Source: a virus
Reading direction: 5' to 3' (one strand)
IMG/VR virus record: IMGVR_UViG_3300043470_000815
Length of the DNA stretch: 64,000 nt
In this document: piece by piece, positions 6,437 through 27,855 of the stretch
Position numbering within the stretch: position 1 is the stretch's first letter
Layout: the number at the start of each line of letters is the position of its first letter
Translations under genes and position numbers: made by a program
Notes under the pieces: generated by a model
Databases searched by the model: none
Told to the model about the DNA's origin: nothing
The model's input: only the letters and a program-made list of their open reading frames with translations

Positions 6437-6478
6437 GTTTTTTTATTGTTTAAATTGTTGAGATCAAATTATTCAATC

Positions 6479-7823: not shown

Positions 7824-8278
7824 TCCCCCTTATTTACAATGATTGAAATATTTGAATAATTAGATAAATCATTTAATGTATCGTTTAGCGATTCATCAGC
7901 CGACCCATCCGAGTTTGTTAAAATTAATTGTCGCATCCGTGCCAACTTGTCACGCATTCTAAACCACAATCCGTATAACGCTTCTTTTTTATTTTCGGGA
8001 ATTTCCAAATCGACTTCTTCACCACCCGAAATATTAGTCATTCCATAACTTTTATTTTTTTCTTGGAAAAGTAAAAATTGTTCGGTTTGTTGTGTCGTAA
8101 AATGTGTTTCAATATTGGTAGGTTCAAAAATCATTCGCAAATCTTCTGCCAAAATTTCTTGGTCGGTGGAAGGTTGATTTTCTAAAGAATTGAACCATTC
8201 GATGGTTGGTTGGGTTGTATAATTTTTATTATTAGTCATTTTTAAAATCGTTTTTAATTTGTTTATCGGTAAATCCAT
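7814..8278 (-). CDS. DUF1599 / nucleotide-modification-associated domain 1 (Nmad1) protein
   Basis: KNKSYG..NI, GLWFRMRDKLAR, DESLNDTL.DLSNY; start probably 8239. Confidence 0.75.
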   Translation of the reverse strand: MDLPINKLKTILKMTNNKNYTTQPTIEWFNSLENQPSTDQEILAEDLRMIFEPTNIETHFTTQQTEQFLLFQEKNKSYGMTNISGGEEVDLEIPENKKEALYGLWFRMRDKLARMRQLILTNSDGSADESLNDTLNDLSNYSNISIIVNKGEWK

Positions 8279-8663
8279 ACCGTTTAAGTTCGTTATTTAT
8301 TTCCTGTTTGGTGGAACGCTTTAATATTTCAACAACTTCGTCGTCATTCATTTCAAATTGTTTAGATAGAAAATCAATGATTTTTTGTTGCTTATTTACC
8401 GTATTATTATTGATATATTTGTTATAAGATTTTTTCTTAGGTAGTATATCCAAATAAACATTATAAGTCATTTCATTGCCCAATGTAGGTGTATATTGCT
8501 GGATATAATTTACAAGTTCAATCATGTTATGATCCATAGACAAAAGTCGATTAATCATATATGGACTGAATTGCTTTTTATCATGGTCAGTCTGTTTATC
8601 CCACCCAACCTTATTAAAAGTTACATCAGTCAATAAGTCAAATATTGTTTTAGGCTTACTCAT
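8232..8663 (-). CDS. clamp loader small subunit (T4 gp62-like)
   Basis: IFDLL..V...K, FSPYMINRLLSM; close to the clamp loader ATPase. Confidence 0.7.
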   Translation of the reverse strand: MSKPKTIFDLLTDVTFNKVGWDKQTDHDKKQFSPYMINRLLSMDHNMIELVNYIQQYTPTLGNEMTYNVYLDILPKKKSYNKYINNNTVNKQQKIIDFLSKQFEMNDDEVVEILKRSTKQEINNELKRYGFTDKQIKNDFKND

Positions 8664-9134: not shown

Positions 9135-9136
9135 AT

Positions 9137-10072
9137 TTAAGTCTTAATAATATTTAAAATGTTTACAATAGTTGCCATTGCGTTAATTTCTTTATCAATT
9201 ACAAGTCCATCCCTGTATTGTCCTTCCGCCAAAGCCAAAATAACCAATCCCTTTTTTCCGTCTCCACAATATTTATCTAATTCATCGAATAAATAACGAT
9301 ACAAATCATTAAAATATTTAATTTTAGAATCTGCAATAGTTTGTCGAACGTCGTTGAATATTTGTTTAACTGTTGCTTTACTATTGAAAATTTCGACTAT
9401 TTTATTACAATAATCATTTACAATAATATTTTGTGTCGATAAAACTAATTCATTATTTAGTGAATTATCCTGTAAATAATTTATAATAGATCGTTGGTCG
9501 GGATAAAATTCTGTTATTACGACTGCTAAATCTTTTGTTGAAAATTTGACATTTTCCGATTCCAAAATAAATTTCATCCGTTTGGCAATTTCTATTTTGG
9601 GTGGACTTTCAATTTGAAATTGGGTGCAACGTGACCGTATGGCTGGATGAATGCGTTCTACATGGTTACACGTGAATATAAACCGTGATGATTTAGAAAA
9701 TGACTCAATGATGTTACGCAAAGATGCTTGGGCATTTATCGTAAGGTAATCTGACTCGTCACATATTACAATTTTCCAACGTTTAAATCCAATAGTGCTT
9801 ACAAATGATGTTATTTTTTCACGTACCATGTCCACATTGTTTTCACTGGAAGCATTGATATATAATACATCGGCATCTAATTTATTTGCAATTAGTTTAG
9901 CAATTGTGGTTTTACCAGTACCGGGTTTTTCGGAAAATAACAACAAATGATTGATTTCACCAACCTCCAGCCAATGTTCAATTTTCCGTTTAAATTCGTC
10001 ATCGGATACATATTCAGATAACTCGGTTGGGCGATATTTTTCAGCCCACCAACTGTTCTTTAAATTTGACAT
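9137..10072 (-). CDS. clamp loader AAA+ subunit (RFC small subunit / T4 gp44-like)
   Basis: WAEKYRP, GTGKTT, DESD, SRC motifs. Confidence 0.95.
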   Translation of the reverse strand: MSNLKNSWWAEKYRPTELSEYVSDDEFKRKIEHWLEVGEINHLLLFSEKPGTGKTTIAKLIANKLDADVLYINASSENNVDMVREKITSFVSTIGFKRWKIVICDESDYLTINAQASLRNIIESFSKSSRFIFTCNHVERIHPAIRSRCTQFQIESPPKIEIAKRMKFILESENVKFSTKDLAVVITEFYPDQRSIINYLQDNSLNNELVLSTQNIIVNDYCNKIVEIFNSKATVKQIFNDVRQTIADSKIKYFNDLYRYLFDELDKYCGDGKKGLVILALAEGQYRDGLVIDKEINAMATIVNILNIIKT

Positions 10073-11955: not shown

Positions 11956-12681
11956 TTAAATTTCAAGTTTAGAAACTAAGTACTTGGTATTCCACCCATC
12001 CCCTTGGAATGTTAATGTCAATAGACCAATATTAGACACTTCAAATTTGCCACTGGACGCATTTTTATTCGCAATGAATATGTCACGTACAACATCAGCG
12101 TTAAAACCCAAAGGATCGGAAATTTGACTAACTACTTCACCATCTACAACCATTTGAATGTGGTTGGTTGGGTTATCGCTGTAATTAATGATTAATTTAA
12201 TTTTATCACCGTCCGTTAAAACCGCAAAGATAACTGCATCTTTGACCGCGTTTTTAGATCGAATAAAACGATCCATTGTTTCACGATCCAGTTCAAATGA
12301 AACGTGTGTGTCGGGATACATTTTTTGGGGGGCGGGTTTTTCAAAGATTTTCAGGTTTAAGTCTGCGAGCATGAACTGAATATCAATAGCCGAATCGGAT
12401 AATTCTAAAGCAACTGGAGTATCACGTTCAACACGTAGTTTCATTTGAAATTCATTGTCAACGGCACTTAGAATCTTTGAAAGACTTTCCGTGTCGAAAA
12501 TACCAACCTCACATTCCTGTAAATCAAACATTTCAAATGTTCCACTCATGTAATATTGACCAACATCCTGACGGACTACAATTGATAATTGTTTTTCATC
12601 ATTTACAACCAGTCGAACTGAATTACAACGACCGCTAACTGAATATTTGGAAATAATGTCTAATAGTTTATTTTTTTGCAT
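11956..12681 (-). CDS. sliding clamp (T4 gp45-like)
   Basis: GIFDTE.L.KILS, F.LAD; 241 aa; next to clamp loader and PolB. Confidence 0.8.
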   Translation of the reverse strand: MQKNKLLDIISKYSVSGRCNSVRLVVNDEKQLSIVVRQDVGQYYMSGTFEMFDLQECEVGIFDTESLSKILSAVDNEFQMKLRVERDTPVALELSDSAIDIQFMLADLNLKIFEKPAPQKMYPDTHVSFELDRETMDRFIRSKNAVKDAVIFAVLTDGDKIKLIINYSDNPTNHIQMVVDGEVVSQISDPLGFNADVVRDIFIANKNASSGKFEVSNIGLLTLTFQGDGWNTKYLVSKLEI

Positions 12682-13305: not shown

Positions 13306-13309
13306 ACTA

Positions 13310-13360: not shown

Positions 13361-13392
13361 CATTATTAATGAGATCAAATTGAAAATTTGAT

Positions 13393-13988: not shown

Positions 13989-13989
13989 A

Positions 13990-14043
13990 CAAGTAATATC
14001 GGTTAAATTTTTGAATTTTACAAGTGTATTAACATATAGTTAA
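13990..14043 (-). promoter_or_regulatory. promoter with perfect TTAAC-N5-GTTAA palindrome and ACTTG box
   Basis: TTAACATATAGTTAA at 14029-43, CAAGT at 14021-25; -7 box imperfect. Confidence 0.55.
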
Positions 14044-14238
14044 CTTATAATCGCTATCATCATCGGTTGATAGGTTTAATCTAGTTTTACATTTTGGGCA
14101 TTTGAACTCGTGTGGGAGTTCATCTTGTTTCCACCAAATATTTGTATCCGAAACGAATGAATCACAGTTGGGACAAACGAAATCAAATGTTCCCAAATCA
14201 CAACTGTAATCATCGCAATGTCTAATAAATTCTGCCAT
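14029..14238 (-). CDS. zinc-finger hypothetical protein
   Basis: CPNC...CPKC. Confidence 0.6.
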   Translation of the reverse strand: MAEFIRHCDDYSCDLGTFDFVCPNCDSFVSDTNIWWKQDELPHEFKCPKCKTRLNLSTDDDSDYKLTIC

Positions 14239-14443: not shown

Positions 14444-17400
14444 CTAAAAAAAGTTATTTTGTTCTGTTAATTGTACTTTATCCCACCCCAAGTCATACCA
14501 AATAGTATCTAACTTAGATATTAATGAAGTTTCAAATACTTTATCTTTGTCCATATATTGTTCTACGAATTTTACAATTCTTGGATCATCTTCACCTTGT
14601 CCTTTTAATGCAATTGTTTCAAATCCATACGAATTTTGCTTGACATACGCATATAAAATTTTATCACCATCAACAATAGGCGAAACATCATCAATATTGA
14701 AAAGTGTTAATAATTGATTATAGTTTTGAGCAGATTTTACGTGAATCGGTGTTCCTTTTTGATTATATTCAAACTTGGAAATTTCCTTAACGCTGCTTGG
14801 TAACATTATATCAAAAATTGAATTTGTCTTATAAATTCGCTTGAAATCGCGTACTGTTTGATTTAATTCATCAACGTCTTTGTCATGTAAAATATCAACA
14901 ATAAGTTCTTTCATTATTTTGCGGAATGATTTCGGGAACGATGAACGCACCACATCAAAACCTTTAATGTCCACTTTTTCTTTAACTTCACCATTGACAA
15001 TTTCAACTGATAATTGTGCGTATCGTTTTTTGGCTTGTCCCCAAAATGCACGTTTTGACACTTTTTCTTCGTTGAACTTTAACCGATTATTGTTAGAATG
15101 AAAACAATGGGTAGTGAACCATTTAATTGATTTATTTATAAATTGTGTAACGTCGTTAGATACTTTTTCGGCTGCTAAAATACATTCGATGTCGGTTAAA
15201 CTATCTATCTTTTCGATTAAGGGTTTAGCATCAAGATAGCACGAATTATGTACCAAAATATTATTAGCGAAAAACGTGTGTGGTGTATCAACCATCCCAA
15301 CATCATACATTTCAGATACTTCAAATGGAAGTTCTTCAATTTCAACTATTTCATCAAGAAATTTGTCAAGGTTTGAATTAAACGCTATAATTGTATCACC
15401 CACCCAAAGATTCTTACTTAAAGTTTTGGTCACGTTTCCATCCAAATCACTAAGCATGATGGAATGATCTTCACTGACAATTATTTCTTTTCCCGATTTA
15501 GTTTTTATTTTAAATCGTTTTTTACGAACATTATGTTTTTCTATATATTTGACAAAACCGTATTTAATATCTTTAGTTGTTTCATCATAATACGGGAATT
15601 TACAGTTTTCAGGGAATGTAAATTCTTTACCCAATGGATCAATATATAACGACGTATTAGAATATTCATCAAATAGCGTTTGAATAGATTTATATTCACC
15701 ATTTTCTAATCTTACAACCGATTCACCTGCCACCGAATCCGAATCTTGATATACAACACAATTTGTTTTATATTGATCTTTTAGTTTATTTTTATAATAC
15801 AAATTGATTATAAAGTCTGAAAACTTAATCACACTTTGACCCGACAAAGTAACACTTTCCCCCGACAACCTAGAATAATACCTAAAGGATGGTAATAACA
15901 AAACACCATAAAGACTGTTCAGCAAGATTTTGGTTATCAACTGTTTACGATCTAAATCAGCGTATTCAATTGAACCTTCTTTGTAGTCTTTCATTCGATT
16001 TTTATACAAAATACGTTCGTTAAACCACTCCTCCAGTATTTCGGGAATAATACCTTTGGTTCGTGTATCAAAAATTACACCAGCCGATGATATAGACGCA
16101 TCATATTTTCCAACAAAATCAATAAATTCAGTTTTATTTAATTTTAATATGTTATCGGTTGGTTGTCCGTATTTTATTTCATTAACTTCTAATATTGCGT
16201 CGTCTGCTAAATATCCAAAATTTTCAATTGATTTTAAATCATTAGACAGTTTGGATGGAAAATGTAGTTGATCCCAATTATTAATTACACCGATCTGCAT
16301 TTCTATACTATTATTCTGTGTAATGATTAGATTCGGATATAAACTTTGTAAGTCAATCGAATAAACCCAACTATGTTTTCCTACCTTGGGTGGTTTGACG
16401 AATGCTCCTTGAGCCTTTCCCGAACTAACAATTATTTTATTTTTTAATGACTTTTTCTGTTTTTTTAACAGATATGAACCAATTTCTTCATATACCTGTT
16501 CGATAAAATCAAAAATATAAATTTTCGCTTTATCTTTTATCGTTTTTAAAATTTTATCAACTGAAATGAACGCACTTTTAACTTTCACAAAAACTTCATC
16601 AGTTCGCATTTCGTAATCTGTCATTTTATTCAGATTACTAATCGTCACTAAACCTTTACGCTTGCATCGGGTAGCAATTGCACCATCCAAGTAACGGCTG
16701 GAAAATTGATAATCATCATAGGGTACGTGTCCTTTGTGGCATATACCGCGAGCAATGGCGATTAAATCCATTTTCTTATCCAATGCAACCATCAACTCCA
16801 CGTCGGTAACGTTGTACGCTATAAAGGCATTTATATCGTTTTTATAAAGTTCATCAAGTGTTCCTGTATATTGGACTTTTCCACGCCCAAGTTCCTTTTT
16901 GGCAATTGAATCCAACGAATAAGAACTTTCTTCATTGTATGTGAATTTTTTATACAATTGAAGATAATCCATCTGCGAAACACCTGCGATTTTAATAAAT
17001 GTTTCTTTTCCAACCTGCCTATTTTCGACTATCCCGATTGGACTTAATTTTTTAGCATAAGTCCATCCAAGCACGTTTTTTAACCGATTAACCAAATACG
17101 GAATATCAAAATAGTCACCATTGTAAGCAGAAACAATCGTTGGTTTAATTTTATTCCAGCGTGAAAGAAAATCCATTAACAGTTTTTCTTCTGTTTGGAA
17201 TGTAACTACATTAACGTCGCTATTGGTCTTTATTTTGTGTTCTTTATCCAGCAGTAGAACATAATACTTTTCATCGAAATAATAGGCAATAGATGTGATT
17301 GTATTCAAAGCCTCGGTTGGTGTTGAATATCGTTTACCCTTTTCAATTTCAATGTCAAAAAATAAAATATTATGTTGGGTGGAAGGTTCGTCACTTTCGT

Positions 17401-17656
17401 AATAACGATCAATTAAAACACGTGTTGCAATTGGAATGTCATGTTCAAATATTTGACCTTCTTTTTCCCGTTGTTTATCCCAATCGTAAACTTTTGTAAC
17501 ATTCCGACCTGTTAGGGTTTTATATGTTCCTTCGTCGTCTAATTGATATGCGTATGGTTCATATCTAAACTTTTCATATAAAGATTCACCATGTAGTCCA
17601 TCTGACCACAAATGACACATATTATCTTTACGATTAAAAAAGAAGTTTTTGTACAT
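14444..17656 (-). CDS. polB: family B DNA polymerase (T4 gp43-like) containing an intein
   Basis: exonuclease FFDIE, YNGDYFDIPY, YNVTD; motif A DLQSLYP; motif B KILLNSLYG; motif C YQDSD-[intein]-SCY; KKRYA. Confidence 0.95.
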   Translation of the reverse strand: MYKNFFFNRKDNMCHLWSDGLHGESLYEKFRYEPYAYQLDDEGTYKTLTGRNVTKVYDWDKQREKEGQIFEHDIPIATRVLIDRYYESDEPSTQHNILFFDIEIEKGKRYSTPTEALNTITSIAYYFDEKYYVLLLDKEHKIKTNSDVNVVTFQTEEKLLMDFLSRWNKIKPTIVSAYNGDYFDIPYLVNRLKNVLGWTYAKKLSPIGIVENRQVGKETFIKIAGVSQMDYLQLYKKFTYNEESSYSLDSIAKKELGRGKVQYTGTLDELYKNDINAFIAYNVTDVELMVALDKKMDLIAIARGICHKGHVPYDDYQFSSRYLDGAIATRCKRKGLVTISNLNKMTDYEMRTDEVFVKVKSAFISVDKILKTIKDKAKIYIFDFIEQVYEEIGSYLLKKQKKSLKNKIIVSSGKAQGAFVKPPKVGKHSWVYSIDLQSLYPNLIITQNNSIEMQIGVINNWDQLHFPSKLSNDLKSIENFGYLADDAILEVNEIKYGQPTDNILKLNKTEFIDFVGKYDASISSAGVIFDTRTKGIIPEILEEWFNERILYKNRMKDYKEGSIEYADLDRKQLITKILLNSLYGVLLLPSFRYYSRLSGESVTLSGQSVIKFSDFIINLYYKNKLKDQYKTNCVVYQDSDSVAGESVVRLENGEYKSIQTLFDEYSNTSLYIDPLGKEFTFPENCKFPYYDETTKDIKYGFVKYIEKHNVRKKRFKIKTKSGKEIIVSEDHSIMLSDLDGNVTKTLSKNLWVGDTIIAFNSNLDKFLDEIVEIEELPFEVSEMYDVGMVDTPHTFFANNILVHNSCYLDAKPLIEKIDSLTDIECILAAEKVSNDVTQFINKSIKWFTTHCFHSNNNRLKFNEEKVSKRAFWGQAKKRYAQLSVEIVNGEVKEKVDIKGFDVVRSSFPKSFRKIMKELIVDILHDKDVDELNQTVRDFKRIYKTNSIFDIMLPSSVKEISKFEYNQKGTPIHVKSAQNYNQLLTLFNIDDVSPIVDGDKILYAYVKQNSYGFETIALKGQGEDDPRIVKFVEQYMDKDKVFETSLISKLDTIWYDLGWDKVQLTEQNNFF
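15245..15736 (-). mobile_element. mini-intein (164 aa, no homing endonuclease) in PolB motif C
   Basis: starts SVAGES, block B SEDHS, ends MYDVG...FFANNILVHN, +1 Ser. Confidence 0.92.
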
Positions 17657-17671
17657 TAATTGTTAAATTAT

Positions 17672-17983
17672 TTAAAAGAAAATATTTGTATTTGTTTCGG
17701 TAATAGTTTCAATTTTTATGTTTAATCCGTATGGGTTGGATGTTTCTCGAAACTTTTCTAATGTATATGATGGATCGTTATAGTTTCGATTACCGATAGT
17801 ATATTGACCATTATATAAATGCTTATCTTGGAAGGTTGGCATTTCTTTTTTATAAGTTTTCATATCAACATTACTTTCCTGCTGCAATTTTAATTGCTTT
17901 AGGTATTTTTCAACTTCGACATCATTACCAATAAAAACATTATTTACAAAACCTGTAACTGTTACTTTTATTTTTTTATTCAT
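17672..17983 (-). CDS. hypothetical protein with C-terminal NIFF tail
   Basis: 103 aa ORF between PolB and the MTases. Confidence 0.55.
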   Translation of the reverse strand: MNKKIKVTVTGFVNNVFIGNDVEVEKYLKQLKLQQESNVDMKTYKKEMPTFQDKHLYNGQYTIGNRNYNDPSYTLEKFRETSNPYGLNIKIETITETNTNIFF

Positions 17984-17986
17984 CTT

Positions 17987-18670
17987 TTAAAAAAATTTAT
18001 TATTTATTGTATTTTTAACCCGATCATTCCCGATTTTAAAATATTCATCGGACAATTCACAACTTACACAATTTCGATTTAAACTTCTTGCAGCCAACCA
18101 AGTCGAAAAAGAACCACCAAACGGATCAAATATTAATTCATTTTCACTTGAAATAGACATTATTAATTTTTGTAATAGTCCAATTGGCTTTTCGTTTGGA
18201 TGAATTAGTTTATCAGCACTAACACGATTTACACGGATTAGGGTGGTTGGGCGTTTGTCTTTAAATTCGTAACGTCCTTTTGTGGCATAAATAATTGACT
18301 CGTGTTGGGGAGCAAATTCACCTTTTAAATCGCCCATCCCGTGTATTCCTTTATCCCAAATTATTTGCGATTTTACAGTAAATCCAGCGTCGATTATTTC
18401 ATTTAGAAATTCATTTTGAACGTCCCAACGGTAGAAACATAACAAACGTCCTCCGTCTTTCATTTTTGGAAATAATGGTTTAATCCAGTCAGTAAATGGA
18501 CGTTCATCGTTTAGGATTTTAGGCTTTTGTACACCCGTGGCCGATGGTCGGCCACTTTGGAAGTCGATACCATACGGCGGATCAGTTAAACAAACATCAA
18601 TAGATTCATTTTCAAATTGATTGATTACGTTTAGACAATCGTCGTGGATTATTTTGGAAATTATATCCAT
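17987..18670 (-). CDS. DNA amino-methyltransferase (N6A/N4C, beta class)
   Basis: TDPPYG ... HPNEKP ... DPFGGSFST. Confidence 0.92.
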   Translation of the reverse strand: MDIISKIIHDDCLNVINQFENESIDVCLTDPPYGIDFQSGRPSATGVQKPKILNDERPFTDWIKPLFPKMKDGGRLLCFYRWDVQNEFLNEIIDAGFTVKSQIIWDKGIHGMGDLKGEFAPQHESIIYATKGRYEFKDKRPTTLIRVNRVSADKLIHPNEKPIGLLQKLIMSISSENELIFDPFGGSFSTWLAARSLNRNCVSCELSDEYFKIGNDRVKNTINNKFF

Positions 18671-19419
18671 TATTTATCAATAACAACTATACATGATTCA
18701 ATCATTGTTCCACTTTCTTTAAACGCACCTTTTTGAATCGGATAAATTGACGCATCAATATTTTCCAACCACCCACGAAATATAGTTTCCTTTTTATTTG
18801 AAGATTGTTTCCAATGTGTTGACATTATAGAAACCAACCTACCACCCGTATTTAACGATTCGTACATTTTATAAACGTGGTCAATGTCTTGATTTTTACT
18901 AAATGGTGGATTTGCAATGATTCGGTCAAATAATGCAGAACCTTCAATCCATTCCACCGATAAAAAATTATTACCAATATGCTGTGCGGTTGGAATTTTT
19001 TCTAAAAATGTTCGGTTAATATCCATTAATTCAAAATAATCAACGTTCAAGGTAGGAAATTTTCGATTAATTGCATGTATAATCGCTCCTTGTCCGGCGG
19101 ATGGTTCTAATATCATTTGTCCTGCATTTTCGTCAATTTCCGCTAATTCGACTAAGTAATCAGCAATTTCAGATGGTGTTGCAAAGAATTGAAATTCTTT
19201 TTTAAGATTACGTTTTTCACCCGATGCGATTTGTTCTAAAAGGTCGGATGGATCACTTTTAAAAACAAAGCCTTGAATTTTACCACTTTTCCACTCCCCG
19301 CCAATTAATTCCAATGATTTTTTGACTTCTGTATAAACTTTTCTGTCCAATTGGGTGGGAGGTAAATATACAATATTATTTTTAACTGTACAATTTTTTA
19401 ATGTTTCTAATGCTGTCAT
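18670..19419 (-). CDS. SAM-dependent DNA adenine methyltransferase-like (gamma order)
   Basis: QFFATP, LEPSAGQG, IIANPPF. Confidence 0.85.
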   Translation of the reverse strand: MTALETLKNCTVKNNIVYLPPTQLDRKVYTEVKKSLELIGGEWKSGKIQGFVFKSDPSDLLEQIASGEKRNLKKEFQFFATPSEIADYLVELAEIDENAGQMILEPSAGQGAIIHAINRKFPTLNVDYFELMDINRTFLEKIPTAQHIGNNFLSVEWIEGSALFDRIIANPPFSKNQDIDHVYKMYESLNTGGRLVSIMSTHWKQSSNKKETIFRGWLENIDASIYPIQKGAFKESGTMIESCIVVIDK

Positions 19420-19436
19420 TTATTTTTTTTTAAATT

Positions 19437-20546
19437 TTAATAAAATGTGTTAATATGTAAAAACGGTGAAATCCGTTTATTTGCAATTTCTATTGATTCG
19501 GGATTTAATTCAATTCCGATAAATTCTCTACCAAGTTTCAAAGCAACCACCCCCGTTGTTCCACTGCCCATGAACGGGTCAAAAATTAAGGATGGTTTAA
19601 TTTCATCGGTTAAACACTTACATGATTTTTTCCACCCAACCGATCTTTGAATTGAAATATTATCAGTTTTAAAAACGGAACTATCAGATACATTATTGGT
19701 ATTTGCTATTTTTCGATCACTTCGTGAATTAGATTCAATTATTTGTTTTTCTAATATCCGAACCCAAGGTTTTCCACATTCAACACAACAACCTTTTTCA
19801 GAACTACCAGTTTTTATACACGGTTCGACTAATTTTTCAGGATAACCAGCAATATGTTCACCAGCCGCCCCGGGTTGTAAATTTATCCGCCAAACATTAC
19901 GCATGTTAACTACTCCGTCATCGAATTTACCCAAATGGTCTGTTTTTTCCTTAACACTAAATTGATCGAAAAAGTAATTTTCATTTTTAGTAAACATGAA
20001 AACATATTCAAAACTTTTTGAAAATCTATCCGTACACGATTCAGGCATAACACTACCTTCACGGACTTGTCCACTCGTTGCCTTTGCCCAAATAATTGTA
20101 TCACGGTGATACCAACCAGCCTCGGACAAAGCAATTGCTAGGCGGTGTGGAACATTCATTAATTCTTTGCGTTTAATGCCGTTTGGCTTATATCCCGAAT
20201 TTTTTATAATACCTTTTTCGCTATTATTCGTAACTTGAATGGATGAAGTATTACGATTTGATACTGTACCATCGGGATTTCGCCCTTTTCCTGATCCCGA
20301 ATAAGAATCAGCGATATTTAAAAAGAAAACTCCAGTGGGTTTTAATACACGACGGACATCTTCAAAAACTTCGACTAGATTGTTAATATAGGCGGTTAAT
20401 GTCGTTTCATTTCCAATTTCCCGTGCATCGTCCAAGTAGTTTCTAAGTCCGAAATAGGGTGGACTTGTAACGCAACAATCGACCGAATTATCAGCAAGTT
20501 TTTTTATTTCCGTCTTGACATCACCTAAATGTATTATATTTTTCAT
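19437..20546 (-). CDS. DNA N4-cytosine methyltransferase (beta class)
   Basis: [20 protein letters not shown]; CVEC...CKC insertion; start trimmed to MKNIIHLGD at 20546. Confidence 0.9.
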
Positions 20547-20547
20547 A

Positions 20548-21000
20548 TTAACGCCCACTACTCCCAAACCCACCAGTACCGCGAATAGTTTCAGAAAGTT
20601 CAGTAACTTCTTCAAATTCGATTTGGGGGAAAGGTAAAATGATTAGTTGAGCAATGCGTTCGCCTACTTCATATATATCATAATCAAAATTTAATTCATT
20701 TTGTAGATGATAAACATATTTAAACCGAGCCTTTATCTCCCCTCGAAATTTTGAATCAATTATCCCTACATGATTGGTAAGTAATTGATTTACATTACTT
20801 TGTGAACTTCGTGGAAATAATAAACCTACATACCCATCAGGTATTTCGATTGATAAACCAGTACCATATTCATAATAACCACCACCATCAGAATATTTCC
20901 AAGTTCGTGATATAGCAGTTAAATCCATTCCAGCATCGCCTATATGGGCATAAGTGGGAATAACAGCGTCAGGGTGTAATTTTTTTATTTTGATTTTCAT
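20548..21000 (-). CDS. dut: trimeric dUTPase
   Basis: [33 protein letters not shown]. Confidence 0.97.
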
Positions 21001-21209
21001 TATTTATTAATAAATTCATCTACACAACATTCAATTTCACGTTGTGTTGTACATGGGTTAATATCATATTCAAGTGAAAATTGAACTAAGACATCTTTAA
21101 TAATATCAACAATGTCCTGACCTACAAAATTATCAAGATGTGTCATTGACGGGTTAAAGTTGTATTTTTCAAATATATGGGATATACCATATTGAGTAGT
21201 TTCTTCCAT
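21000..21209 (-). CDS. hypothetical protein
   Basis: 69 aa ORF, coupled to neighbour. Confidence 0.5.
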   Translation of the reverse strand: MEETTQYGISHIFEKYNFNPSMTHLDNFVGQDIVDIIKDVLVQFSLEYDINPCTTQREIECCVDEFINK

Positions 21210-21224
21210 TTCGATTTTTAAATT

Positions 21225-21443
21225 TTATTCGTGTGGTGGGTTTGGTATTTGATTAAATTGTGTTTCATTTATTAAAACTTGACCAATATCATCCATCCAA
21301 AAATGATGTGTACATCTTTCTTTATATTGTTCCAAGTACCATTCGGCATATTCTTTCATCATATTTTCCACTGATTTTGTTTGAATTAAATTTCTATCAT
21401 AAAATTCTAAACCCGATTCAATAATTTCTTTAATTTTAGACAT
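21225..21443 (-). CDS. hypothetical protein
   Basis: 72 aa ORF. Confidence 0.5.
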   Translation of the reverse strand: MSKIKEIIESGLEFYDRNLIQTKSVENMMKEYAEWYLEQYKERCTHHFWMDDIGQVLINETQFNQIPNPPHE

Positions 21444-21444
21444 T

Positions 21445-21720
21445 TTATTTTAATCGGTTTACAGTGAAACATGTGGTTGGATTTTTTGATTGAATTATAT
21501 CAAGTAAACAATCATATTTATCAAGAATTTCTTGGGATTTTTTAATATCTTCTTTCGTTAATATAATATCAACGATTGGTATTAATTCATCAGTTACAGA
21601 TTTAGCCTGTTCAGTTATCATTTTAGTTTCATAAGACAAAACCCATTCGAGTAAGTCTTCCTTAGTTAAGGAAAACAACATTCTGTCAAATTCATTAGAA
21701 AGTTCGTCTATATTTAGCAT
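21445..21720 (-). CDS. hypothetical protein
   Basis: 91 aa ORF. Confidence 0.5.
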   Translation of the reverse strand: MLNIDELSNEFDRMLFSLTKEDLLEWVLSYETKMITEQAKSVTDELIPIVDIILTKEDIKKSQEILDKYDCLLDIIQSKNPTTCFTVNRLK

Positions 21721-21732
21721 AATTTATTATTT

Positions 21733-22197
21733 TTAGACATAGTACAATCTATGTCTTTTTATTTGATTACAAAATTCATCCATATTTTCAATTGGTTTTC
21801 CATAATATCTATGAAATGTACCATTCGCCTTTAATGGATTTTTAAGACGTTCAATTACACGTTGTCGGATTAAACACGTATCTTTGAATTTTACAGTCCA
21901 CCCTGTCTTTAAATTTTCAGATTCAATTTCAGTTAAATCTATTTGGGTGGATGGATTGAAACCACGTTCACGCATTTCATTATTAACTTCTTCCAACCTA
22001 TCCTTTAAATACAGAATTTTTGGTTTGAAAAAATTAATATGACCTTGACCCAAACAAAATTCGGTTGGAACTTGACCTTTAATTTTCCACCCATCCTTCC
22101 GTAATGAGCCAACAATCATTGTAATTTCAACAGATTCCGCAATTAAATGCTGGTCAGATAAGTATTTGGGTTCAATTCCACAGTTAACTCGTGCCAT
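21733..22197 (-). CDS. denV: pyrimidine dimer DNA glycosylase (T4 endonuclease V family)
   Basis: MARVN..I.P..LSDQHLIAE..E, FCLG.GHINFF, EMRERGF. Confidence 0.9.
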   Translation of the reverse strand: MARVNCGIEPKYLSDQHLIAESVEITMIVGSLRKDGWKIKGQVPTEFCLGQGHINFFKPKILYLKDRLEEVNNEMRERGFNPSTQIDLTEIESENLKTGWTVKFKDTCLIRQRVIERLKNPLKANGTFHRYYGKPIENMDEFCNQIKRHRLYYV

Positions 22198-22209
22198 ATT
22201 TTTTTATTG

Positions 22210-22260
22210 CAAAGATAAACGCAAAAATTGAATTAGTGTGATGAATTAACATTCTAATAA
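22210..22260 (-). promoter_or_regulatory. promoter TATCTTTG with TTAAC half-site 28 nt upstream
   Basis: CAAAGATA at 22210-17; TTAAC at 22246-50 (overlaps a stop codon). Confidence 0.6.
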
Positions 22261-22512
22261 CAAATACAATTCATTCAAGGCATCAATTAGGCAATTTTCG
22301 TATGTGGTTGGGGGATTTGAATAAAATGAATTACCAGTTGCCATAAAAAACGGTGACATACAATCTTCCATGTAAATTCTATAAAACCACCCACTCCAGT
22401 CATCAATTGGACGAATTTCAATGTAAATTTTTTTATTTACAATTAACCAATTATGTAATTCAAAGATGGATAAATCTACGTTAAATAATTCGTTTAATTT
22501 ATTGTTTTTCAT
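22246..22512 (-). CDS. hypothetical protein
   Basis: 88 aa ORF. Confidence 0.55.
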   Translation of the reverse strand: MKNNKLNELFNVDLSIFELHNWLIVNKKIYIEIRPIDDWSGWFYRIYMEDCMSPFFMATGNSFYSNPPTTYENCLIDALNELYLLLEC

Positions 22513-22753
22513 TTTGTAAATGATTTAATATTTTTTTTAATGAATTTAGATCATTCCATCTTTTGGATGATAATATATATCCACCCGACATATCTTTTAG
22601 AAAACATTGTACATTTACATATACACCATCCTTCACAACTTTAAAAATAACTCCTTTATGTTCATCCAACACAATATCCTTACTTACTAACGAACCATGA
22701 ATAAGTTCGTATTCGGTAATAAGTTCACTGATTTGCTTCGCGTAACTTTTCAT
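22499..22753 (-). CDS. hypothetical protein
   Basis: 84 aa ORF. Confidence 0.55.
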   Translation of the reverse strand: MKSYAKQISELITEYELIHGSLVSKDIVLDEHKGVIFKVVKDGVYVNVQCFLKDMSGGYILSSKRWNDLNSLKKILNHLQNEKQ

Positions 22754-23171
22754 TATTCTTTAAAAATTTTAAAAAATTTACAACATTATAAAACGTACTT
22801 TGGACTTTAGTTTCAAAAATAGCGTTTGGGTCAGAAATGTAAGATTTAACATTGTTATCAGATAAATACGCATATTTAGATCGAATATCACATTGATTTG
22901 CGTTTATATAAACCTGAAACCACCCAAAGTCTTCATCGCGAGTACTTTCAATCTTTTCAACAACCAACATCAGTAAATTCCAGTCCCAATGAAAAGCCAT
23001 TTCTTTAGCAGTTCGACCAAGATAATAATAACGATCTTTTGGTTGTTTTTTAGTATGAATCCATCCACCACTTAGGTTGTTTGGAATATCTTTATCCGTC
23101 CATTTGTAATATTTATAGCCTAAGTAATCGGCACATAATTTATTACCTTCGTTTATAAATTCGACATTCAT
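22725..23171 (-). CDS. hypothetical protein
   Basis: 148 aa ORF; FHWDWNLLM.VVEKIE motif. Confidence 0.6.
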   Translation of the reverse strand: MNVEFINEGNKLCADYLGYKYYKWTDKDIPNNLSGGWIHTKKQPKDRYYYLGRTAKEMAFHWDWNLLMLVVEKIESTRDEDFGWFQVYINANQCDIRSKYAYLSDNNVKSYISDPNAIFETKVQSTFYNVVNFLKFLKNNEKLREANQ

Positions 23172-23183
23172 AAGTTTAAATTT

Positions 23184-23564
23184 TTATTTTTTTCGGTCTA
23201 ATAATTTATCCTTAACAGTTCGCATAAAGTTATATATTTGAACAAATTGTATTCGATTTTCTTTGAAAAATTCTAAATCAAGTACATCTGTGTATTCAAT
23301 CAAATCCCACCTTTCGTAAAAAATATTATCAAAGAAATTATAAATATAACTTGGATTGTCCCAACATTCAATTGTTTCACTATATGTATAAACACCGTCT
23401 TTAAAATCTAAAAACATTGGTTTAAATATAAATCGCAAATTTTCATCGGTGCTAATTTCAAATGATGATTTAATTAAAAATCCATTGGTTGCCTCAAACC
23501 ATGAATCAAATGAATGATACGTTTGGTTTGGTAAAGGCATTTCTTCAAATCTTTCTGTGTTCAT
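23184..23564 (-). CDS. hypothetical protein
   Basis: 126 aa ORF. Confidence 0.55.
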   Translation of the reverse strand: MNTERFEEMPLPNQTYHSFDSWFEATNGFLIKSSFEISTDENLRFIFKPMFLDFKDGVYTYSETIECWDNPSYIYNFFDNIFYERWDLIEYTDVLDLEFFKENRIQFVQIYNFMRTVKDKLLDRKK

Positions 23565-24073
23565 TATTCTTCGATTACAGTCCCATCGGACTTTATTTTA
23601 ATTGTTACAAATTTATATTGTTCATTTTCGACACATTGCCTAATTGACTCTTGTATAGGGTCATTTTCCTTCTTAGAATCTAACAGAACAATGTTTTTTA
23701 TTACGGGGTTGGTTGGATCGTTCATTCCATTGAATACCACAAAATCTATTGGGTGGAAGTGAACTTTCACATCGTTTGGACTGTAACCTAATGGTTTAAA
23801 AATCGTATCATATTCGGCAATATGTTCATCGGCAGCAATTCTACCCGCCAAAGTTGCATCTTGCTTAACTTTAATTAATTTAGTTCGCATTATATCTTCA
23901 CGAATTTCTAATTTCTTAATTTCGCGATTAAGTTTGTCCAAGAAATCTAGGGTTGGGCGAACATCGTCATAAGTAACAGTATCGGATTGCCGAAAAAAAT
24001 GGTTACATTCAGAGCATTGGCAAAAAGTATTTCTAGTTATTTGATCCATCTTAATAAGTTCTAAATTTGACAT
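23564..24073 (-). CDS. endonuclease related to archaeal Holliday-junction resolvase (Endonuc_Holl-like), copy 2
   Basis: CSEC, coiled coil, HPIDFVVFNG...LLDSK. Confidence 0.65.
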   Translation of the reverse strand: MSNLELIKMDQITRNTFCQCSECNHFFRQSDTVTYDDVRPTLDFLDKLNREIKKLEIREDIMRTKLIKVKQDATLAGRIAADEHIAEYDTIFKPLGYSPNDVKVHFHPIDFVVFNGMNDPTNPVIKNIVLLDSKKENDPIQESIRQCVENEQYKFVTIKIKSDGTVIEE

Positions 24074-24485
24074 TCTTTTTTTCGTTAATAATCGCTTGAA
24101 TTTCTTTTTGTCGTTTGGTTAATATCGCACCACCCGTTTTAACATCTACGAATAAAATTTCAGTTACTTTACCATTAGCCATCCCATCGAAAATAATATA
24201 ATCAATTGGATCACCTCCAGTATGTCTGCAATTTTTGTGGTCAAAGTTAAACGTATCCATTGCTGGAATAAGTCGTTCGGCAATAAAACCAATATTGATT
24301 GATTTTGTAGATGTATAAATTCGATTATACAGTTCGTCTTTGGCAGTATTTAACGCTTTTTTGCGTTTTTCAATCAATTCGAGTTGTTTTTGATAATATT
24401 CTATTTTATTTAATTTAGAAGTATCAACAATTACACTTTCCAATTGTAACTCCGAATAACAGTTCGGACATTCTATTTTTTTCAT
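24051..24485 (-). CDS. endonuclease related to archaeal Holliday-junction resolvase (Endonuc_Holl-like), copy 1
   Basis: CPNC, G.IAERL.P, DPIDYIIFDG...FVDVKTGGA.LT.RQ. Confidence 0.8.
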   Translation of the reverse strand: MKKIECPNCYSELQLESVIVDTSKLNKIEYYQKQLELIEKRKKALNTAKDELYNRIYTSTKSINIGFIAERLIPAMDTFNFDHKNCRHTGGDPIDYIIFDGMANGKVTEILFVDVKTGGAILTKRQKEIQAIINEKKNVKFRTY

Positions 24486-24856
24486 TATTTAATAAGTTTT
24501 GGATTTTCATATATATTTCCAATGATAATAATATCAAGATGATTACTGACAATATAATCAATAGATTTAGTATTAGATTTAAATTTACATTCAAATGATG
24601 CCATATATCTATTATATTCTACAACGCCAAATTCATCACAACATAATAAAATATCACCTTCATAAACTTCTTCACCGTTTTTGTCATAAACACCAGTGAA
24701 AATCATTAATTTACAAGATGGGTGGGTTGGTTCAAGTTTGTCATTTTCAAATTGATAAAAATAACCATTTGGAGATACAAAGAAATCGGTATATTGCATT
24801 GATATACCAGTCCAAAGTCTAAATTCGTTAGTCATTTTTTTCGTATATATTACCAA
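24485..24856 (-). CDS. YopX family protein
   Basis: FRLW, TGVYDKNG.EVYEGDIL, IIGNIYENP. Confidence 0.85.
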   Translation of the reverse strand: MVIYTKKMTNEFRLWTGISMQYTDFFVSPNGYFYQFENDKLEPTHPSCKLMIFTGVYDKNGEEVYEGDILLCCDEFGVVEYNRYMASFECKFKSNTKSIDYIVSNHLDIIIIGNIYENPKLIK

Positions 24857-25205
24857 TTATTTCACAATCATAATCAATCCACCGATACGCATGAAAATAA
24901 TCATCAACCGTTATCCGAAATGAACCATCTGCGAAGTTTACAATTCCTGTTTTTATTTTAAGATCATCAAATGAGTTGAAACGGACAATATCGCCTTCGT
25001 AAATTTCTTTATCGTATTTATCACAGATACCAGTATATTGCATTAATTTCCAATCCACATAAACCAACCTACCTTCATTATAATCTGTTGAATTTAAAAT
25101 TAGAACATCACCATCAGAATCGACATAAAATTCATCTTTTTGCATGTATTTTCCGTCCCATGCTCTAAATTTTATTTCTCGTTTGTTTTTCATATTCGTT
25201 ATCAT
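24828..25205 (-). CDS. YopX family protein
   Basis: EIKFRAWD, LMQYTG..DK..KEIYEGDIV, IIGNIYE; start probably 25193. Confidence 0.9.
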   Translation of the reverse strand: MITNMKNKREIKFRAWDGKYMQKDEFYVDSDGDVLILNSTDYNEGRLVYVDWKLMQYTGICDKYDKEIYEGDIVRFNSFDDLKIKTGIVNFADGSFRITVDDYFHAYRWIDYDCEIIGNIYEKND

Positions 25206-25217
25206 TTTTTATTATGA

Positions 25218-25268
25218 CAAAGATAAGTCAAATATTTGGATTACACAACCTTATTAACATTTAGTTAA
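25218..25268 (-). promoter_or_regulatory. promoter GTTG-N20-TATCTTTG with perfect TTAAC-N5-GTTAA palindrome
   Basis: CAAAGATA at 25218-25, CAAC at 25246-49, TTAACATTTAGTTAA at 25254-68. Confidence 0.7.
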
Positions 25269-25822
25269 CGAGCAATCCACCCACTGTATCTTTTACGCCA
25301 CACAATTGGACTGATTTTATTTCCACCCAAAGCCCACAAACCTAATTTATTTTTACGTGCGGTACGGTGAAGATCGTTATAAAGTTTAAATTCAGACTTT
25401 GGTTGATTCGGTTCATTTCTTGACCACGCATTACCATTTACCAATTGATAAACAGATAAATCAACACTATCACGCGTATAAACTTTACAGACCATCCTAT
25501 CAAATTGGTCGGTGTATATTGGAACAACTTTTAATGTGTCTTTTCGTACTAATAACCGTAAAAATTCAGCAGATTCTTTATTGTAAGGTTGTGGTTTTGT
25601 AACGTATAAAGATTGGTGTTCAGGTGCATCAATTCCGTATAACCTTAATCGTTGGATAGAATCACTTCCAAAGAATTTAAAAGACGGTGAATCACCATCG
25701 TAAGCACCGACCCCAATGACATAAAAAGCACCGGGTTCTAATAATGTTTTTACAACTGGTTTGGTAGTTGTACAAGATGTTGCAAATAATATTGCAGTAA
25801 GATAAAATAATAAGTTTTTCAT
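25265..25822 (-). CDS. thermonuclease (SNase family) with lipoprotein signal peptide
   Basis: MKNLLFYLTAILFATS-C; YDGDS, RLYGIDAPE, DQFDR, QLVNGNAW, ARKNKLGLW. Confidence 0.9.
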   Translation of the reverse strand: MKNLLFYLTAILFATSCTTTKPVVKTLLEPGAFYVIGVGAYDGDSPSFKFFGSDSIQRLRLYGIDAPEHQSLYVTKPQPYNKESAEFLRLLVRKDTLKVVPIYTDQFDRMVCKVYTRDSVDLSVYQLVNGNAWSRNEPNQPKSEFKLYNDLHRTARKNKLGLWALGGNKISPIVWRKRYSGWIAR

Positions 25823-25828
25823 TAATTT

Positions 25829-26734
25829 TTAAGTATTTTTAATAAACAATTCAGCAGGGTTTAGTTTAAATTGTAACATTTTGGCCGTATCTCGTCCAGC
25901 GTCCCCACCCTTCCGTTGTACTGTTATTCGACCAATTTTAAAGTTTCCTTGTGATGTTGTTGTTACGTCGCCCTGACTAAAATGATTCATAGCGACATTC
26001 ATTGGTTCTAACAACCATTTTACATCATCATTTACATTCAACGCTACCAATATCCATTCAGCCGCGAATTTACCGCGACCTTTCATAATATCCGATATAA
26101 TTAAAAATTTATTTTCCCGAAACCAATCCAACACGTGATTAAATTCTAATTCATCAGTAAACATTCGACGTTCATCTTTAGGATTTTCAATGGTTGGTGG
26201 AAGTTCACCAGTATAATGCTTGAGGGTGGTTGTGACATTTTCAGGAATATCCCACATTTGTTTGTACGTGTCAACCCACCTTTTATCAACTTGATTAAAA
26301 CCTTTCGGATTACTGACCAATTTAACTTGTAAATTTTGAGCATCAATTAAGTTTTTTAATTTAATGGTTACTTGTACCTGAACATCGGTTTTAAATCCAT
26401 GTAAAGTTTCCGCCGTCACATATTCAATTTCGTTTAAATCGTAACCCATTTGTGATAACCACCCAACCACGTCCGTATCATTTTGCCAATTGATGAATTT
26501 TTCAACTACTAATTTTTCATTTAAAAACCCATCCTTTGCGGTTTTTGATCCTTTATTGACAATTGAATTACAAATGGTTGGTTGATTATTGTATTCAATA
26601 ACTGGTAAAATTGTGGATTTAAGTCTTTTCCATTCTACCTTGTCTAATTCATAATTACCTGTTAATTCGGGATGAAATTCCCAAAACATTCCACTATTTA
26701 AGACGGAATTATAATCTTGTTCTAGTTTGTCCAT
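25829..26734 (-). CDS. type II restriction endonuclease, R.HinP1I-like (GCGC family)
   Basis: GSKTAKDGF.NE, GFKTDVQVQV, QVKLVSN.KGFNQVDK.W, GRGKFAAEWILV, TVQRKGGD.GR.TA.MLQFK match R.HinP1I as I recall it. Confidence 0.85.
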   Translation of the reverse strand: MDKLEQDYNSVLNSGMFWEFHPELTGNYELDKVEWKRLKSTILPVIEYNNQPTICNSIVNKGSKTAKDGFLNEKLVVEKFINWQNDTDVVGWLSQMGYDLNEIEYVTAETLHGFKTDVQVQVTIKLKNLIDAQNLQVKLVSNPKGFNQVDKRWVDTYKQMWDIPENVTTTLKHYTGELPPTIENPKDERRMFTDELEFNHVLDWFRENKFLIISDIMKGRGKFAAEWILVALNVNDDVKWLLEPMNVAMNHFSQGDVTTTSQGNFKIGRITVQRKGGDAGRDTAKMLQFKLNPAELFIKNT

Positions 26735-27054
26735 TTAGATAAAATTTCAGTTTTTAATTTTTCAAATTCGATATAATCTGCTTTATCCGTTGATAAACAT
26801 TCAATACGTGTTGATTCACGAACGGGACAAACAATGTGCAACCAACCATGATTCTTTAAAAATGATAATGATTCATAAGTTTCATTAATAGTTTCATTGA
26901 ATATATCATTGGGAATTTCACGAACATCTAAATATACAATCAAAACTGGAGTTGGGTGGGTGGATGGAACAAATATTGTTTTATTATCAACCGTTGTTGA
27001 TAATTTTTCAAATGGTGCGTTCACATTAAACGGATTTTTATTAAAGTCTATCAT
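26722..27054 (-). CDS. hypothetical protein
   Basis: 110 aa ORF between MTase and REase. Confidence 0.55.
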   Translation of the reverse strand: MIDFNKNPFNVNAPFEKLSTTVDNKTIFVPSTHPTPVLIVYLDVREIPNDIFNETINETYESLSFLKNHGWLHIVCPVRESTRIECLSTDKADYIEFEKLKTEILSKWTN

Positions 27055-27060
27055 TTAATT

Positions 27061-27855
27061 TTAAAAAAAGTTATTTGTTGTATTTACTGTTATTTGTGTG
27101 TGCTGTTTTATACGTTCGTTAATAATATCATAATATTTTTCTTCTTTTTCCATTAAGATATAATTCCGTTTGGTGTTTAAACAAGCAATTCCCGTCGTTC
27201 CTGAACCAGCACAATTATCCAAAACCACATCACCTTCATTGGTGTAAGTTTTAATTAGATATTCAAATAATGCAACTGGTTTTTGGGTTGGGTGTAATCT
27301 ATGATGTGAATTTACACCGTTGAATTTTTTTACCGTTTTCGGGTAACTCATATCCACATCTTCGGGAATATATTGAATTTTCTTAATTCCATTTTGCTGC
27401 TCATTTATTCCCGATTCGGTAGTAAATTTATATTTCATCCGTGACTTACTTTTATCAGACATATCACGTTCTTCTTTTATAGGATTATAAGTACATTGAT
27501 TTTTATAAAAAACCAAAACATTTTCGTGATTTCTAAGCGGTTGCTTTTTAACTAACGCAAACCCACTGGTCATATTTTTACTCCAAACCCATTCATATTT
27601 AAACATCTTTGGATTACTCATTACCAACGCACTTGTAAACGGTTGGATGGAAGTTAGTACAATAGCACCATTATCCTTTATAATCCTATTATATTGTTCC
27701 CATAATTTATCAAACGGAATAATCGTATCCCATGAACAAGCAGTCGATCCGTAAGGTAAATCACACAAAATCATGTCTATTGATTTATCGGGAATTAATG
27801 GCATACCAACCTCCCCCAAACAATCACAATTTAGTACTGTATTTACATACTCCAT
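27061..27855 (-). CDS. DNA amino-methyltransferase (N6A/N4C, beta class)
   Basis: LCDLPYG, HPTQKP, LDNCAGSGTTG. Confidence 0.92.
   Translation of the reverse strand: MEYVNTVLNCDCLGEVGMPLIPDKSIDMILCDLPYGSTACSWDTIIPFDKLWEQYNRIIKDNGAIVLTSIQPFTSALVMSNPKMFKYEWVWSKNMTSGFALVKKQPLRNHENVLVFYKNQCTYNPIKEERDMSDKSKSRMKYKFTTESGINEQQNGIKKIQYIPEDVDMSYPKTVKKFNGVNSHHRLHPTQKPVALFEYLIKTYTNEGDVVLDNCAGSGTTGIACLNTKRNYILMEKEEKYYDIINERIKQHTQITVNTTNNFF

Follow-up and report, generated by a model that had tools for sequence, protein, structure and literature searches.

In phages T4 and RB69, the DNA polymerase gp43 and the proteins gp55 and gp33 end in similar hydrophobic-acidic peptides that are interchangeable ligands of the gp45 sliding clamp. 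The RB69 clamp has been co-crystallised with the 11 C-terminal residues of its polymerase, and the linker before the T4/RB69 epitope is variable and probably unstructured, as described in the clamp passages of the Geiduschek and Kassavetis review (PMC2988020). For gp55 and gp33 the motif has been given as LDFL, in a text whose passages on clamp partners also name Dnmt1-PCNA as the methyltransferase case (PMC9690074). Here we describe a comparable arrangement in an uncultured phage, represented by 64,000 nucleotides of IMG/VR record IMGVR_UViG_3300043470_000815 (hereafter the window; 31% G+C), in which the family B DNA polymerase (PolB), three DNA methyltransferases and a 103-amino-acid (aa) open reading frame (ORF) share the C-terminal tail N-x-F-[FY]. 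We consider it probable that this tail docks the polymerase and the methyltransferases on the phage's own sliding clamp, as a sequence-only reading of the stretch had proposed.

The likeness to T4 and RB69, as far as the cited passages describe them, lies in an aromatic or hydrophobic peptide at the extreme C-terminus, carried on a variable linker and common to the polymerase and to non-polymerase clients of a trimeric clamp. Unlike in T4 and RB69, the clients in the window are DNA-modifying enzymes rather than transcription factors, their peptide, N-x-F-F, is flanked by polar residues and is free of acidic ones, and the arrangement is known here from sequence. In the DNMT1-PCNA case, too, a methyltransferase tethered to a sliding clamp methylates newly made DNA, according to the part of the source that treats it (PMC9690074). 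The two systems are not homologous, however, and DNMT1 serves epigenetic inheritance, whereas the phage tails presumably serve protection from nucleases. The PCNA-interacting peptide (PIP)-type motif of DNMT1 is also not at its C-terminus. Bacterial beta-clamp motifs likewise form a portable pentapeptide that brings diverse enzymes to the clamp, the QL[SD]LF class occurring on polymerases, MutS, Hda, transposases and MuC of phage Mu. Use of the host clamp is documented for phage Mu (PMC12867686), and a transposase-clamp interaction is on record as well (PMC4549789). The tails of the window are of another type, however, and a bacterial beta-clamp motif was rejected for them, since they contain no Q-x-x-L-F and the clamp is gp45/PCNA-like rather than DnaN.

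The plasmid methyltransferases M.EcoGIX and M.BceJIII are coupled to DNA polymerase in replication, and a host factor such as the sliding clamp has been suggested by their authors as something that might link the two; they differ in that the link is co-purification with Pol I and the action is on single strands, and the pertinent passages of the source describe no clamp-binding tail (PMC7736820). A comparative review of jumbo phages mentions clamps, and its passages on the subject do not mention clamp tails on modifying enzymes (PMC7824862). In our literature search, clamp-binding tails were described neither for phage methyltransferases nor for DpdA, although subscription journals were mostly uncovered and absence is therefore unproven. 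A clamp toolbelt with a polymerase-type tail is already known; what is new, as far as the literature search reached, is DNA-modifying enzymes as a class of client.

The shared tail in the window

From the window we chose 104 non-overlapping ORFs of at least 40 aa by a greedy procedure and kept the 182 ORFs not picked as genes as a control for AT-rich codon bias. Exactly five of the 104 end in N-x-F-[FY], and their C-termini, re-read from the sequence, are those first stated: EQNNFF on PolB, TNTNIFF on the 103-aa ORF at 17672, and INNKFF, HINTFY and TTNNFF on the methyltransferases at 17987, 19437 and 27061 (Table 1). The looser pattern F[FY]$, an F followed by F or Y at the very C-terminus, is found only in these same five, with N at position -4 in every one. 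Amino-acid composition predicts 0.52 ORFs with F[FY]$ (binomial P = 1.9e-4) and 0.04 with N.F[FY]$ (P = 5e-10), the internal rate of the motif predicts 0.07 with the latter, and among the control ORFs the two patterns end 3/182 and 1/182, respectively. The motif was defined post hoc, so the P values from the window are indicative only and more weight falls on tests in other genomes. Five tails where 0.04-0.07 are expected, together with so few in control ORFs, are not what an AT-bias artefact would look like; the concern that the tail might be equally common in unrelated ORFs is thus answered by 5/104 genes against 1/182 control ORFs.

In PolB the last six codons (14447-14464) encode EQNNFF, closing a C-terminus that reads ...TEQNNFF. 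Among related loci read to the stop codon, PolB ends in an aromatic pair in 79 of 80, followed by at most one further residue. The pair lies about 8-12 residues after a conserved LGW in related PolBs, and NNFF of the window stands at the same position; judged by this alignment, the tail occupies the place of the aromatic C-terminal tail of T4-family polymerases.

The three tailed methyltransferases are distant PF01555 paralogues, 24% identical or matching only locally. They had been called unrelated, a description that fails within the window, where all three are PF01555, and holds once the methyltransferase families of relatives (D12, EDM2-like and Eco57I-type, below) are included. The tail of methyltransferase 27061, TQITVNTTNNFF, comes after the last conserved helix. 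Relatives at 92-68% identity (P0001, P0004, P0018) keep VNTTNNFF, one at 64% identity (P0033) has NKINNKFF, and the N/T/K-rich linker before the tail varies among them (TQITVNTTNNFF versus TQ-TNKINNKFF).

The 103-aa ORF has no match in Pfam, PHROG or NCBIfam. Its counterpart in the related genome G001, an 83-aa ORF (L002 1086-1337, ending HINTFF), matches it at E = 3e-17, and an 89-aa ORF of the related locus L013 (5146-5415), ending TDKFF, has preceding residues like its own (IKIE...). We regard the 103-aa ORF as a candidate small clamp client. By size and tail, the 83-103-aa protein might, speculatively, be a gp33-like adaptor between clamp and RNA polymerase; alternatively, it could be a regulator competing for clamp sites.

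Relatives of the phage and co-variation with the polymerase tail

Single-protein scans for close relatives returned none for PolB or the clamp in viral_contigs and none for PolB in metagenome_contigs. Kin loci came from alignment-based scans, in which a smaller clamp alignment (A2) gave one locus per collection. The clamps of L002 (that is, G001) and L003 are about 41-42% identical to that of the window, and scans with the PolB C-terminus gave L013, L014 and L016 at 64-46% identity. The clade comprises six genome pieces with 439 ORFs in total (the window, G001, L003, G003, G004 and G005).

F[FY]$ ends 18 of these 439 ORFs: five PolBs, six PF01555 methyltransferases, three DpdA/TGT-like proteins (TGT, tRNA-guanine transglycosylase), one DUF6884 protein and three ORFs of 83-103 aa. 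No structural or metabolic protein is among them, and the sixth PolB, that of G005, is split and stands outside the 18, with SNFF by hand reading. G001 (79 kb, 138 ORFs) has four such ends, on PolB (EQSNFF), two PF01555 methyltransferases (ERTDFF and NVHKFY) and the 83-aa ORF, compared with 2/390 of its control ORFs. In L003 there are three among 29 ORFs (PolB EETNFF, a 413-aa protein SLNKFF and a DUF6884 protein CANLFF), in L013 three (PolB, a PF01555 methyltransferase SDTNFF and the 89-aa ORF), in L014 two (PolB DSDFF and a 406-aa protein SNDFF) and in L016 one as called (a 398-aa TGT-like protein, NENTFF), besides a split PolB that reads SNFF by hand. Judged by size, family and similar C-terminal residues, the likely counterparts of methyltransferase 19437 are the 406-aa G001 protein ending NVHKFY and a 399-aa protein of L013 ending KSKNLF.

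The tail codons of PolB are AAC TTT TTT in the window and L013 and AAT TTC TTT in L002 and L003, and over all listed tails the 58 Phe codons divide into 47 TTT and 11 TTC. Related PolB tails thus differ in their codons while the residues stay constant, a sign that selection acts on the peptide rather than the DNA.

The 413-, 406- and 398-aa proteins are mutually 36-39% identical and their genes lie among FolE and QueC genes. A PF01702 (TGT) match falls below the cut-off in two of the three, the nearest protein-atlas neighbours of the 413-aa L003 protein are viral TGT/DpdA-like clusters, and a profile of the trio, compared by sequence with solved structures, gave no meaningful match. The sub-threshold PF01702 matches, atlas neighbours and gene context lend moderate support to their being DpdA-like DNA transglycosylases. 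The DUF6884 family is described as a YaaA-like domain, probably DNA-binding and base-flipping, in the passages of the Pfam paper that concern it (PMC11701544). We also observe that in these loci a 7-deazaguanine cluster stands in place of the methyltransferase block upstream of PolB (L003 1485-4930, L014 3787-6954, L016 1757-5955), comprising FolE, QueC, the DpdA-like protein, DUF6884 and a Vut_1 transporter-like protein, with an inositol-1-phosphate synthase-like gene in addition in L016.

A second lineage carries a different form of the tail. On the 174-kb contig G002 (22% G+C), PolB, 33% identical at its C-terminus, ends NQNFFGF, and all five PF01555 methyltransferases end in F-x-[FY] plus at most one residue (LFEF, LFEF, IFNY, YFNFK and LFQF). 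A D12 methyltransferase, frameshifted, ends YFDF, an Eco57I-type methyltransferase ends LFIY, and a paralogous family with tails HFEF, IFKF, YFNF and KFVF, whose nearest atlas clusters are EDM2-type methyltransferases, has four paralogues, one of them split in two, the intact members ending F-x-[FY]. The D12 gene (L017 12050-12767) lies in two frames with a +1 shift, YFDF being on the downstream piece, and this could be a homopolymer sequencing error or a real frameshift. Twelve of the 17 tail carriers of G002 lie within 16 kb around PolB and the clamp.

The pattern extends to a cultured phage, Agrobacterium phage Atu_ph07, in which the C-terminal part of PolB ends DLFGF, a clamp gene lies just downstream, and all three PF01555 methyltransferases carry GLFEF, DLFSF or GLFDFGDD. 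Beside the tail sheath gene of this phage (MF403008.1, 99486-100043), a 185-aa hypothetical protein ends ISMFDF, like the PolB tail; from its size we presume that it may be a gp55-type late-transcription factor. Furthermore, in the T4-like IMG/VR locus L019 PolB ends SSLEDFFG and a Tet_JBP dioxygenase (12771-14120; PF12851, E = 1e-28) ends SNSLEGFF. The neighbouring 220-aa ORF ends QPSLEDFLK. Five T4-like IMG/VR contigs contained no PF01555 gene.

Taken over the window, G001, G002 and Atu_ph07, 12 of 15 PF01555 methyltransferases carry the tail of their own genome, versus 18 of 1324 other ORFs (Fisher P = 6e-19, a pooled statistic that overstates independence because the lineages are few). Since PolB in the second lineage ends in F-x-F and so do methyltransferases of several families, the form of the tail, as read from these C-termini, co-varies with that of the polymerase, x-F-F in the clade and F-x-F in the second lineage. 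Carriers in relatives include D12, EDM2-like and Eco57I-type methyltransferases, DpdA-like enzymes, a DUF6884 protein and a Tet/JBP dioxygenase; the scan of C-termini that the sequence-only reading had called for, in the window and its relatives, accordingly finds the tails enriched on PolB and DNA-modifying enzymes.

Two further observations concern these genomes. Intrusions into the PolB gene differ between relatives: in the window there is an Intein_splicing match at aa 649-804 (E = 1e-6, below the cut-off); in L003 the 1388-aa protein (4878-9044) contains a LAGLIDADG domain; the L016 gene is split by a GIY-YIG gene (5955-9587); that of L014 is broken into several ORFs (6954-10768); and that of G002 consists of three ORFs with a sub-threshold intein match (L017 6372-10843). 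In a family-2 glycosyltransferase of the window (2098-2751, minus strand) the string KQNNFY stands six residues before the C-terminus, and a similarly sized G001 ORF (31408-32109, 233 aa) contains KQNKFYEIF close to its own. These strings may represent the tail in an internal form, carried by a candidate DNA sugar-transferase, unless the likeness is coincidental.

Probable clamp docking and its alternatives

The tailed genes of the window belong to a T4-like replication module of minus-strand genes spanning about 8-33 kb (Table 1), which also has a dUTPase, a DenV-like glycosylase, several nucleases, an R.HinP1I-like endonuclease, a ribonucleotide reductase, a DnaB helicase and a FEN-type exonuclease, alongside four methyltransferases in all.

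Table 1. Genes of the window that bear on the shared C-terminal tail
Feature	Coordinates	Strand	Evidence
Clamp-loader A subunit (gp62-like)	8232..8663	-	Pfam Phage_clamp_A E 2.7e-9
Clamp-loader AAA+ subunit (gp44-like)	9137..10072	-	Pfam AAA E 3e-15, DNA_pol3_delta2 E 1e-11; Gp44_lid weak
Sliding clamp, 241 aa, gp45/PCNA fold	11956..12681	-	phrog_223 processivity factor E 6e-6
Family B DNA polymerase (PolB), 1070 aa, with putative intein	14444..17656	-	Pfam DNA_pol_B E 3e-26, exo1 E 1e-24
Conserved 103-aa protein, tailed	17672..17983	-	sequence; 42% identical to 83-aa ORF of G001
DNA methyltransferase, 227 aa, PF01555, tailed	17987..18670	-	Pfam N6_N4_Mtase E 2.5e-28; phrog_67 E 8e-54
Fourth DNA methyltransferase, 249 aa, N6_Mtase/Eco57I type, ends VVIDK	18670..19419	-	Pfam N6_Mtase E 5e-5; phrog_9133 E 1e-59
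DNA methyltransferase, 392 aa, TTG start, PF01555 with insertion, tailed	19437..20615	-	Pfam N6_N4_Mtase E 1e-41
DNA methyltransferase, 264 aa, PF01555, tailed	27061..27855	-	Pfam E 3.4e-29

The gp45-like clamp that had been read at 11956 is borne out by its PHROG match, by profile and by fold. It has 655 relatives in the representative library, and a family profile of 132 relatives matches the RB69 clamp 1b77/1b8h (E = 3.5e-6) and T4 gp45 1czd (E = 2.7e-4). Its structure model (predicted local distance difference test score, pLDDT, 96.4) has PCNA chains as best Foldseek matches (template modelling score 0.69-0.78). The clamp of P0121 is 95% identical to it. This clamp is the presumed docking hub for the tails.

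Several features of the T4 arrangement recur here. In the alignment and model of methyltransferase 27061 the tail comes last in the chain, past the folded domain and on a variable linker; the same peptide ends the phage's own PolB at the position of the gp43 tail; and a gp45-type clamp with a gp44/62-type loader is encoded in the window. The comparative side of the proposed tether thus stands: the shared tail is specific, is kept under divergence, changes with the PolB tail, sits where T4-family polymerases carry theirs, and has clamp and loader genes nearby. The C-terminal N-x-F-[FY] would then act as a short linear docking motif that terminates a polar linker of low complexity and inserts into the phage's gp45/PCNA-type clamp as the epitopes of gp43, gp55 and gp33 do in T4 and RB69. 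PolB would use it for processivity, and the methyltransferases, with DpdA-like transglycosylases, the DUF6884 protein and the Tet/JBP dioxygenase in relatives, would have acquired the polymerase-type peptide. We infer that the tailed enzymes bind the clamp, act on nascent DNA and thereby protect it: kept on clamps that have been loaded onto phage DNA during or just after its replication, they would modify it while sliding, before nucleases cut unmodified sites. Their site of action may be the fork itself or clamps that stay on the new DNA after it has passed, two cases that look alike in sequence.

The wider family of methyltransferase 27061 may extend this pattern to another clamp. Among its closest 120 relatives, 18 end in [LIMF]F (1.1 expected), and in a further 25 a pair of this kind falls within the last ten residues (about 10 expected). 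Many of these ends read Q-x-x-L-F, and the strings include QLSLF, QINLF, QQKLF, ESLF and QTLFGNEM. In 80 IMG/VR loci of the family, 27 methyltransferases have such a pair in the last six residues, a count without a control. The Q-x-x-L-F strings resemble the bacterial beta-clamp consensus; if they are beta-clamp motifs, the same C-terminal position would match whichever clamp the phage uses. Tailless homologues include those of Salmonella phage S102 and Lactococcus phage 66901.

A number of observations weigh against clamp docking. Classical clamp clients of the window, namely the FEN/5'-3' exonuclease at 32226 and the clamp-loader subunits, have no tail, nor do DnaB, several nucleases or the DenV-like glycosylase. 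The fourth methyltransferase (18670-19419) is an internal negative case, and the L013 protein that probably corresponds to it, matched on size and a similar C-terminus only, is tailless too; two of the four PF01555 methyltransferases of G001 also lack the tail. The aromatic pair in the window is flanked by N, T and K, with no D or E as in the T4 epitopes, to whose LDFL-type composition the tails of the F-x-F lineage (LFEF, LFDF) come closer. A canonical PIP box has the consensus Q-x-x-[ILM]-x-x-[FY]-[FY]. It was rejected here, as, once FF is set at positions 7-8, positions 1 and 4 are L and Q in PolB and V and T in methyltransferase 27061. In the model of the latter (pLDDT 89 overall, 79 and then 64 across the last 14 residues) the tail continues the last helix at moderate confidence and forms no clearly disordered arm. 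On the comparative side, the loose pattern in G002 is nearly as frequent in non-gene ORFs (12/256) as in genes (17/268); because junk ORFs there match so often, the case of G002 rests on the identity of the carriers and their clustering around PolB. The strict pattern is weakly enriched in Atu_ph07 (4/829, 1.4 expected, P = 0.054), and the independent lineages number perhaps three or four, so that counts of co-variation are not independent events.

These points leave room for other readings of the tail. It might dock on another replisome hub shared with PolB, such as the single-stranded DNA-binding protein (SSB), the helicase or its loader, or the polymerase itself, which we think unlikely. 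The clamp is a receiver deduced from sequence, the acidic residues of the T4 epitopes are missing, and docking details differ even in T4, where the gp43 tail prefers an open subunit interface in solution over the pocket seen in the crystal, as a passage of the T4 review has it (PMC2988020). Another hub sits poorly, however, with the PolB tail lying where T4-family polymerases carry theirs, which in T4 and RB69 is the gp45-binding epitope, and with the finding that each tail-bearing genome tested encodes a clamp of one and the same family (5/5 other records, plus the window); nor do the passages of the T4 review on polymerase C-termini describe any other hub.

A still less probable reading makes the tail some other signal, either a C-terminal degron that sets when these enzymes are removed or a nucleotide-level signal at gene ends, for translational coupling or as a terminator T-run, that only incidentally encodes Phe-Phe. 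Hydrophobic C-termini can act as protease tags, the tail codons are rich in T (TTT TTT TAA), and often a new gene begins 1-16 nucleotides further on. We nonetheless rejected a DNA-level signal, given the synonymous TTC codons (11/58), orthologous PolB tails that differ in DNA and keep FF, an F-x-F form that interrupts the T-run, and differing downstream contexts. Moreover, 99 of the 104 window ORFs, tightly packed genes of the same operons included, lack the tail, and a degron leaves the position of the PolB tail at the T4-family clamp epitope unexplained. Chance, or an artefact of AT-rich codons, seems to us a scarcely credible source of the shared tail. The composition of 31% G+C, the commonness of F, N and Y, the post hoc motif and the junk ORFs of G002 all give this reading some purchase, yet it is close to refuted by the window (5 tails versus 0.04-0.5 expected and 1-3/182 control ORFs), by the control ORFs of G001 (4/138 genes versus 2/390), by the Fisher test on PF01555 methyltransferases versus other ORFs, and by the identity of the carriers in the six related pieces, where PolB, DNA-modifying enzymes and a single conserved small ORF account for 18/18. 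Docking of PolB and the methyltransferases on the phage clamp therefore stays the best reading of the tail.

Restriction context and meaning

The window shows strong avoidance of restriction sites alongside its four methyltransferases. Over positions 1-64000 several palindromes are absent altogether, namely AGCT (186 expected), GCGC (40), CCWGG (27), GATATC (21) and GAATTC (21), and GATC, GANTC and CGCG occur near expectation. Two genes from the tailed methyltransferase 27061 lies the R.HinP1I-like restriction endonuclease (25829-26734, minus strand; PF11463, E = 2e-81), which the phage, its own window being free of GCGC, may use against host DNA. The absent sites and the encoded endonuclease together indicate that site avoidance and modification both operate, and fast self-protection may be relevant against host and phage nucleases alike. 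Elsewhere in the window, a protein with an ART-PolyVal ADP-ribosyltransferase domain (E = 1e-22) lies near a 1662-aa protein without a family match (40106-46407, minus strand).

Modification of phage DNA is a main counter-defence against restriction, and it raises the question of how thousands of sites on fast-replicating DNA are modified ahead of nucleases. A polymerase-type clamp tail on modifying enzymes would, if true, be a simple physical answer and a microbial counterpart of DNMT1-PCNA. In a broader form, which in our judgement could as easily fail as hold, the phage clamp would be a general modification toolbelt, on which DNA-disguising enzymes are recruited by a copied PolB C-terminal peptide whose form tracks the clamp. 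Such a toolbelt would span several chemistries, namely methylation (at least four methyltransferase families), 7-deazaguanine insertion (DpdA-like proteins and DUF6884) and Tet/JBP oxidation, and several forms of the peptide, x-F-F, F-x-F, SLE-x-FF and, where host beta clamps are used, perhaps Q-x-x-L-F, with the 83-103-aa protein next to PolB as a further client. The clamp-tail idea also yields a sequence rule, in which matching the C-terminus of a protein to the phage's own PolB can flag unknowns that act on DNA; the rule flags the 103-aa ORF, the DUF6884 protein and the EDM2-like methyltransferases in relatives. Late transcription factors of gp55/gp33 type, encoded in the part of this phage's genome beyond the window, are likewise predicted to bear the tail. 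Because the cultured phage Atu_ph07 shows the same pattern, the idea is directly testable and, if it is true, clamp-tail peptides or deletions of the tail are predicted to sensitise such phages to restriction.

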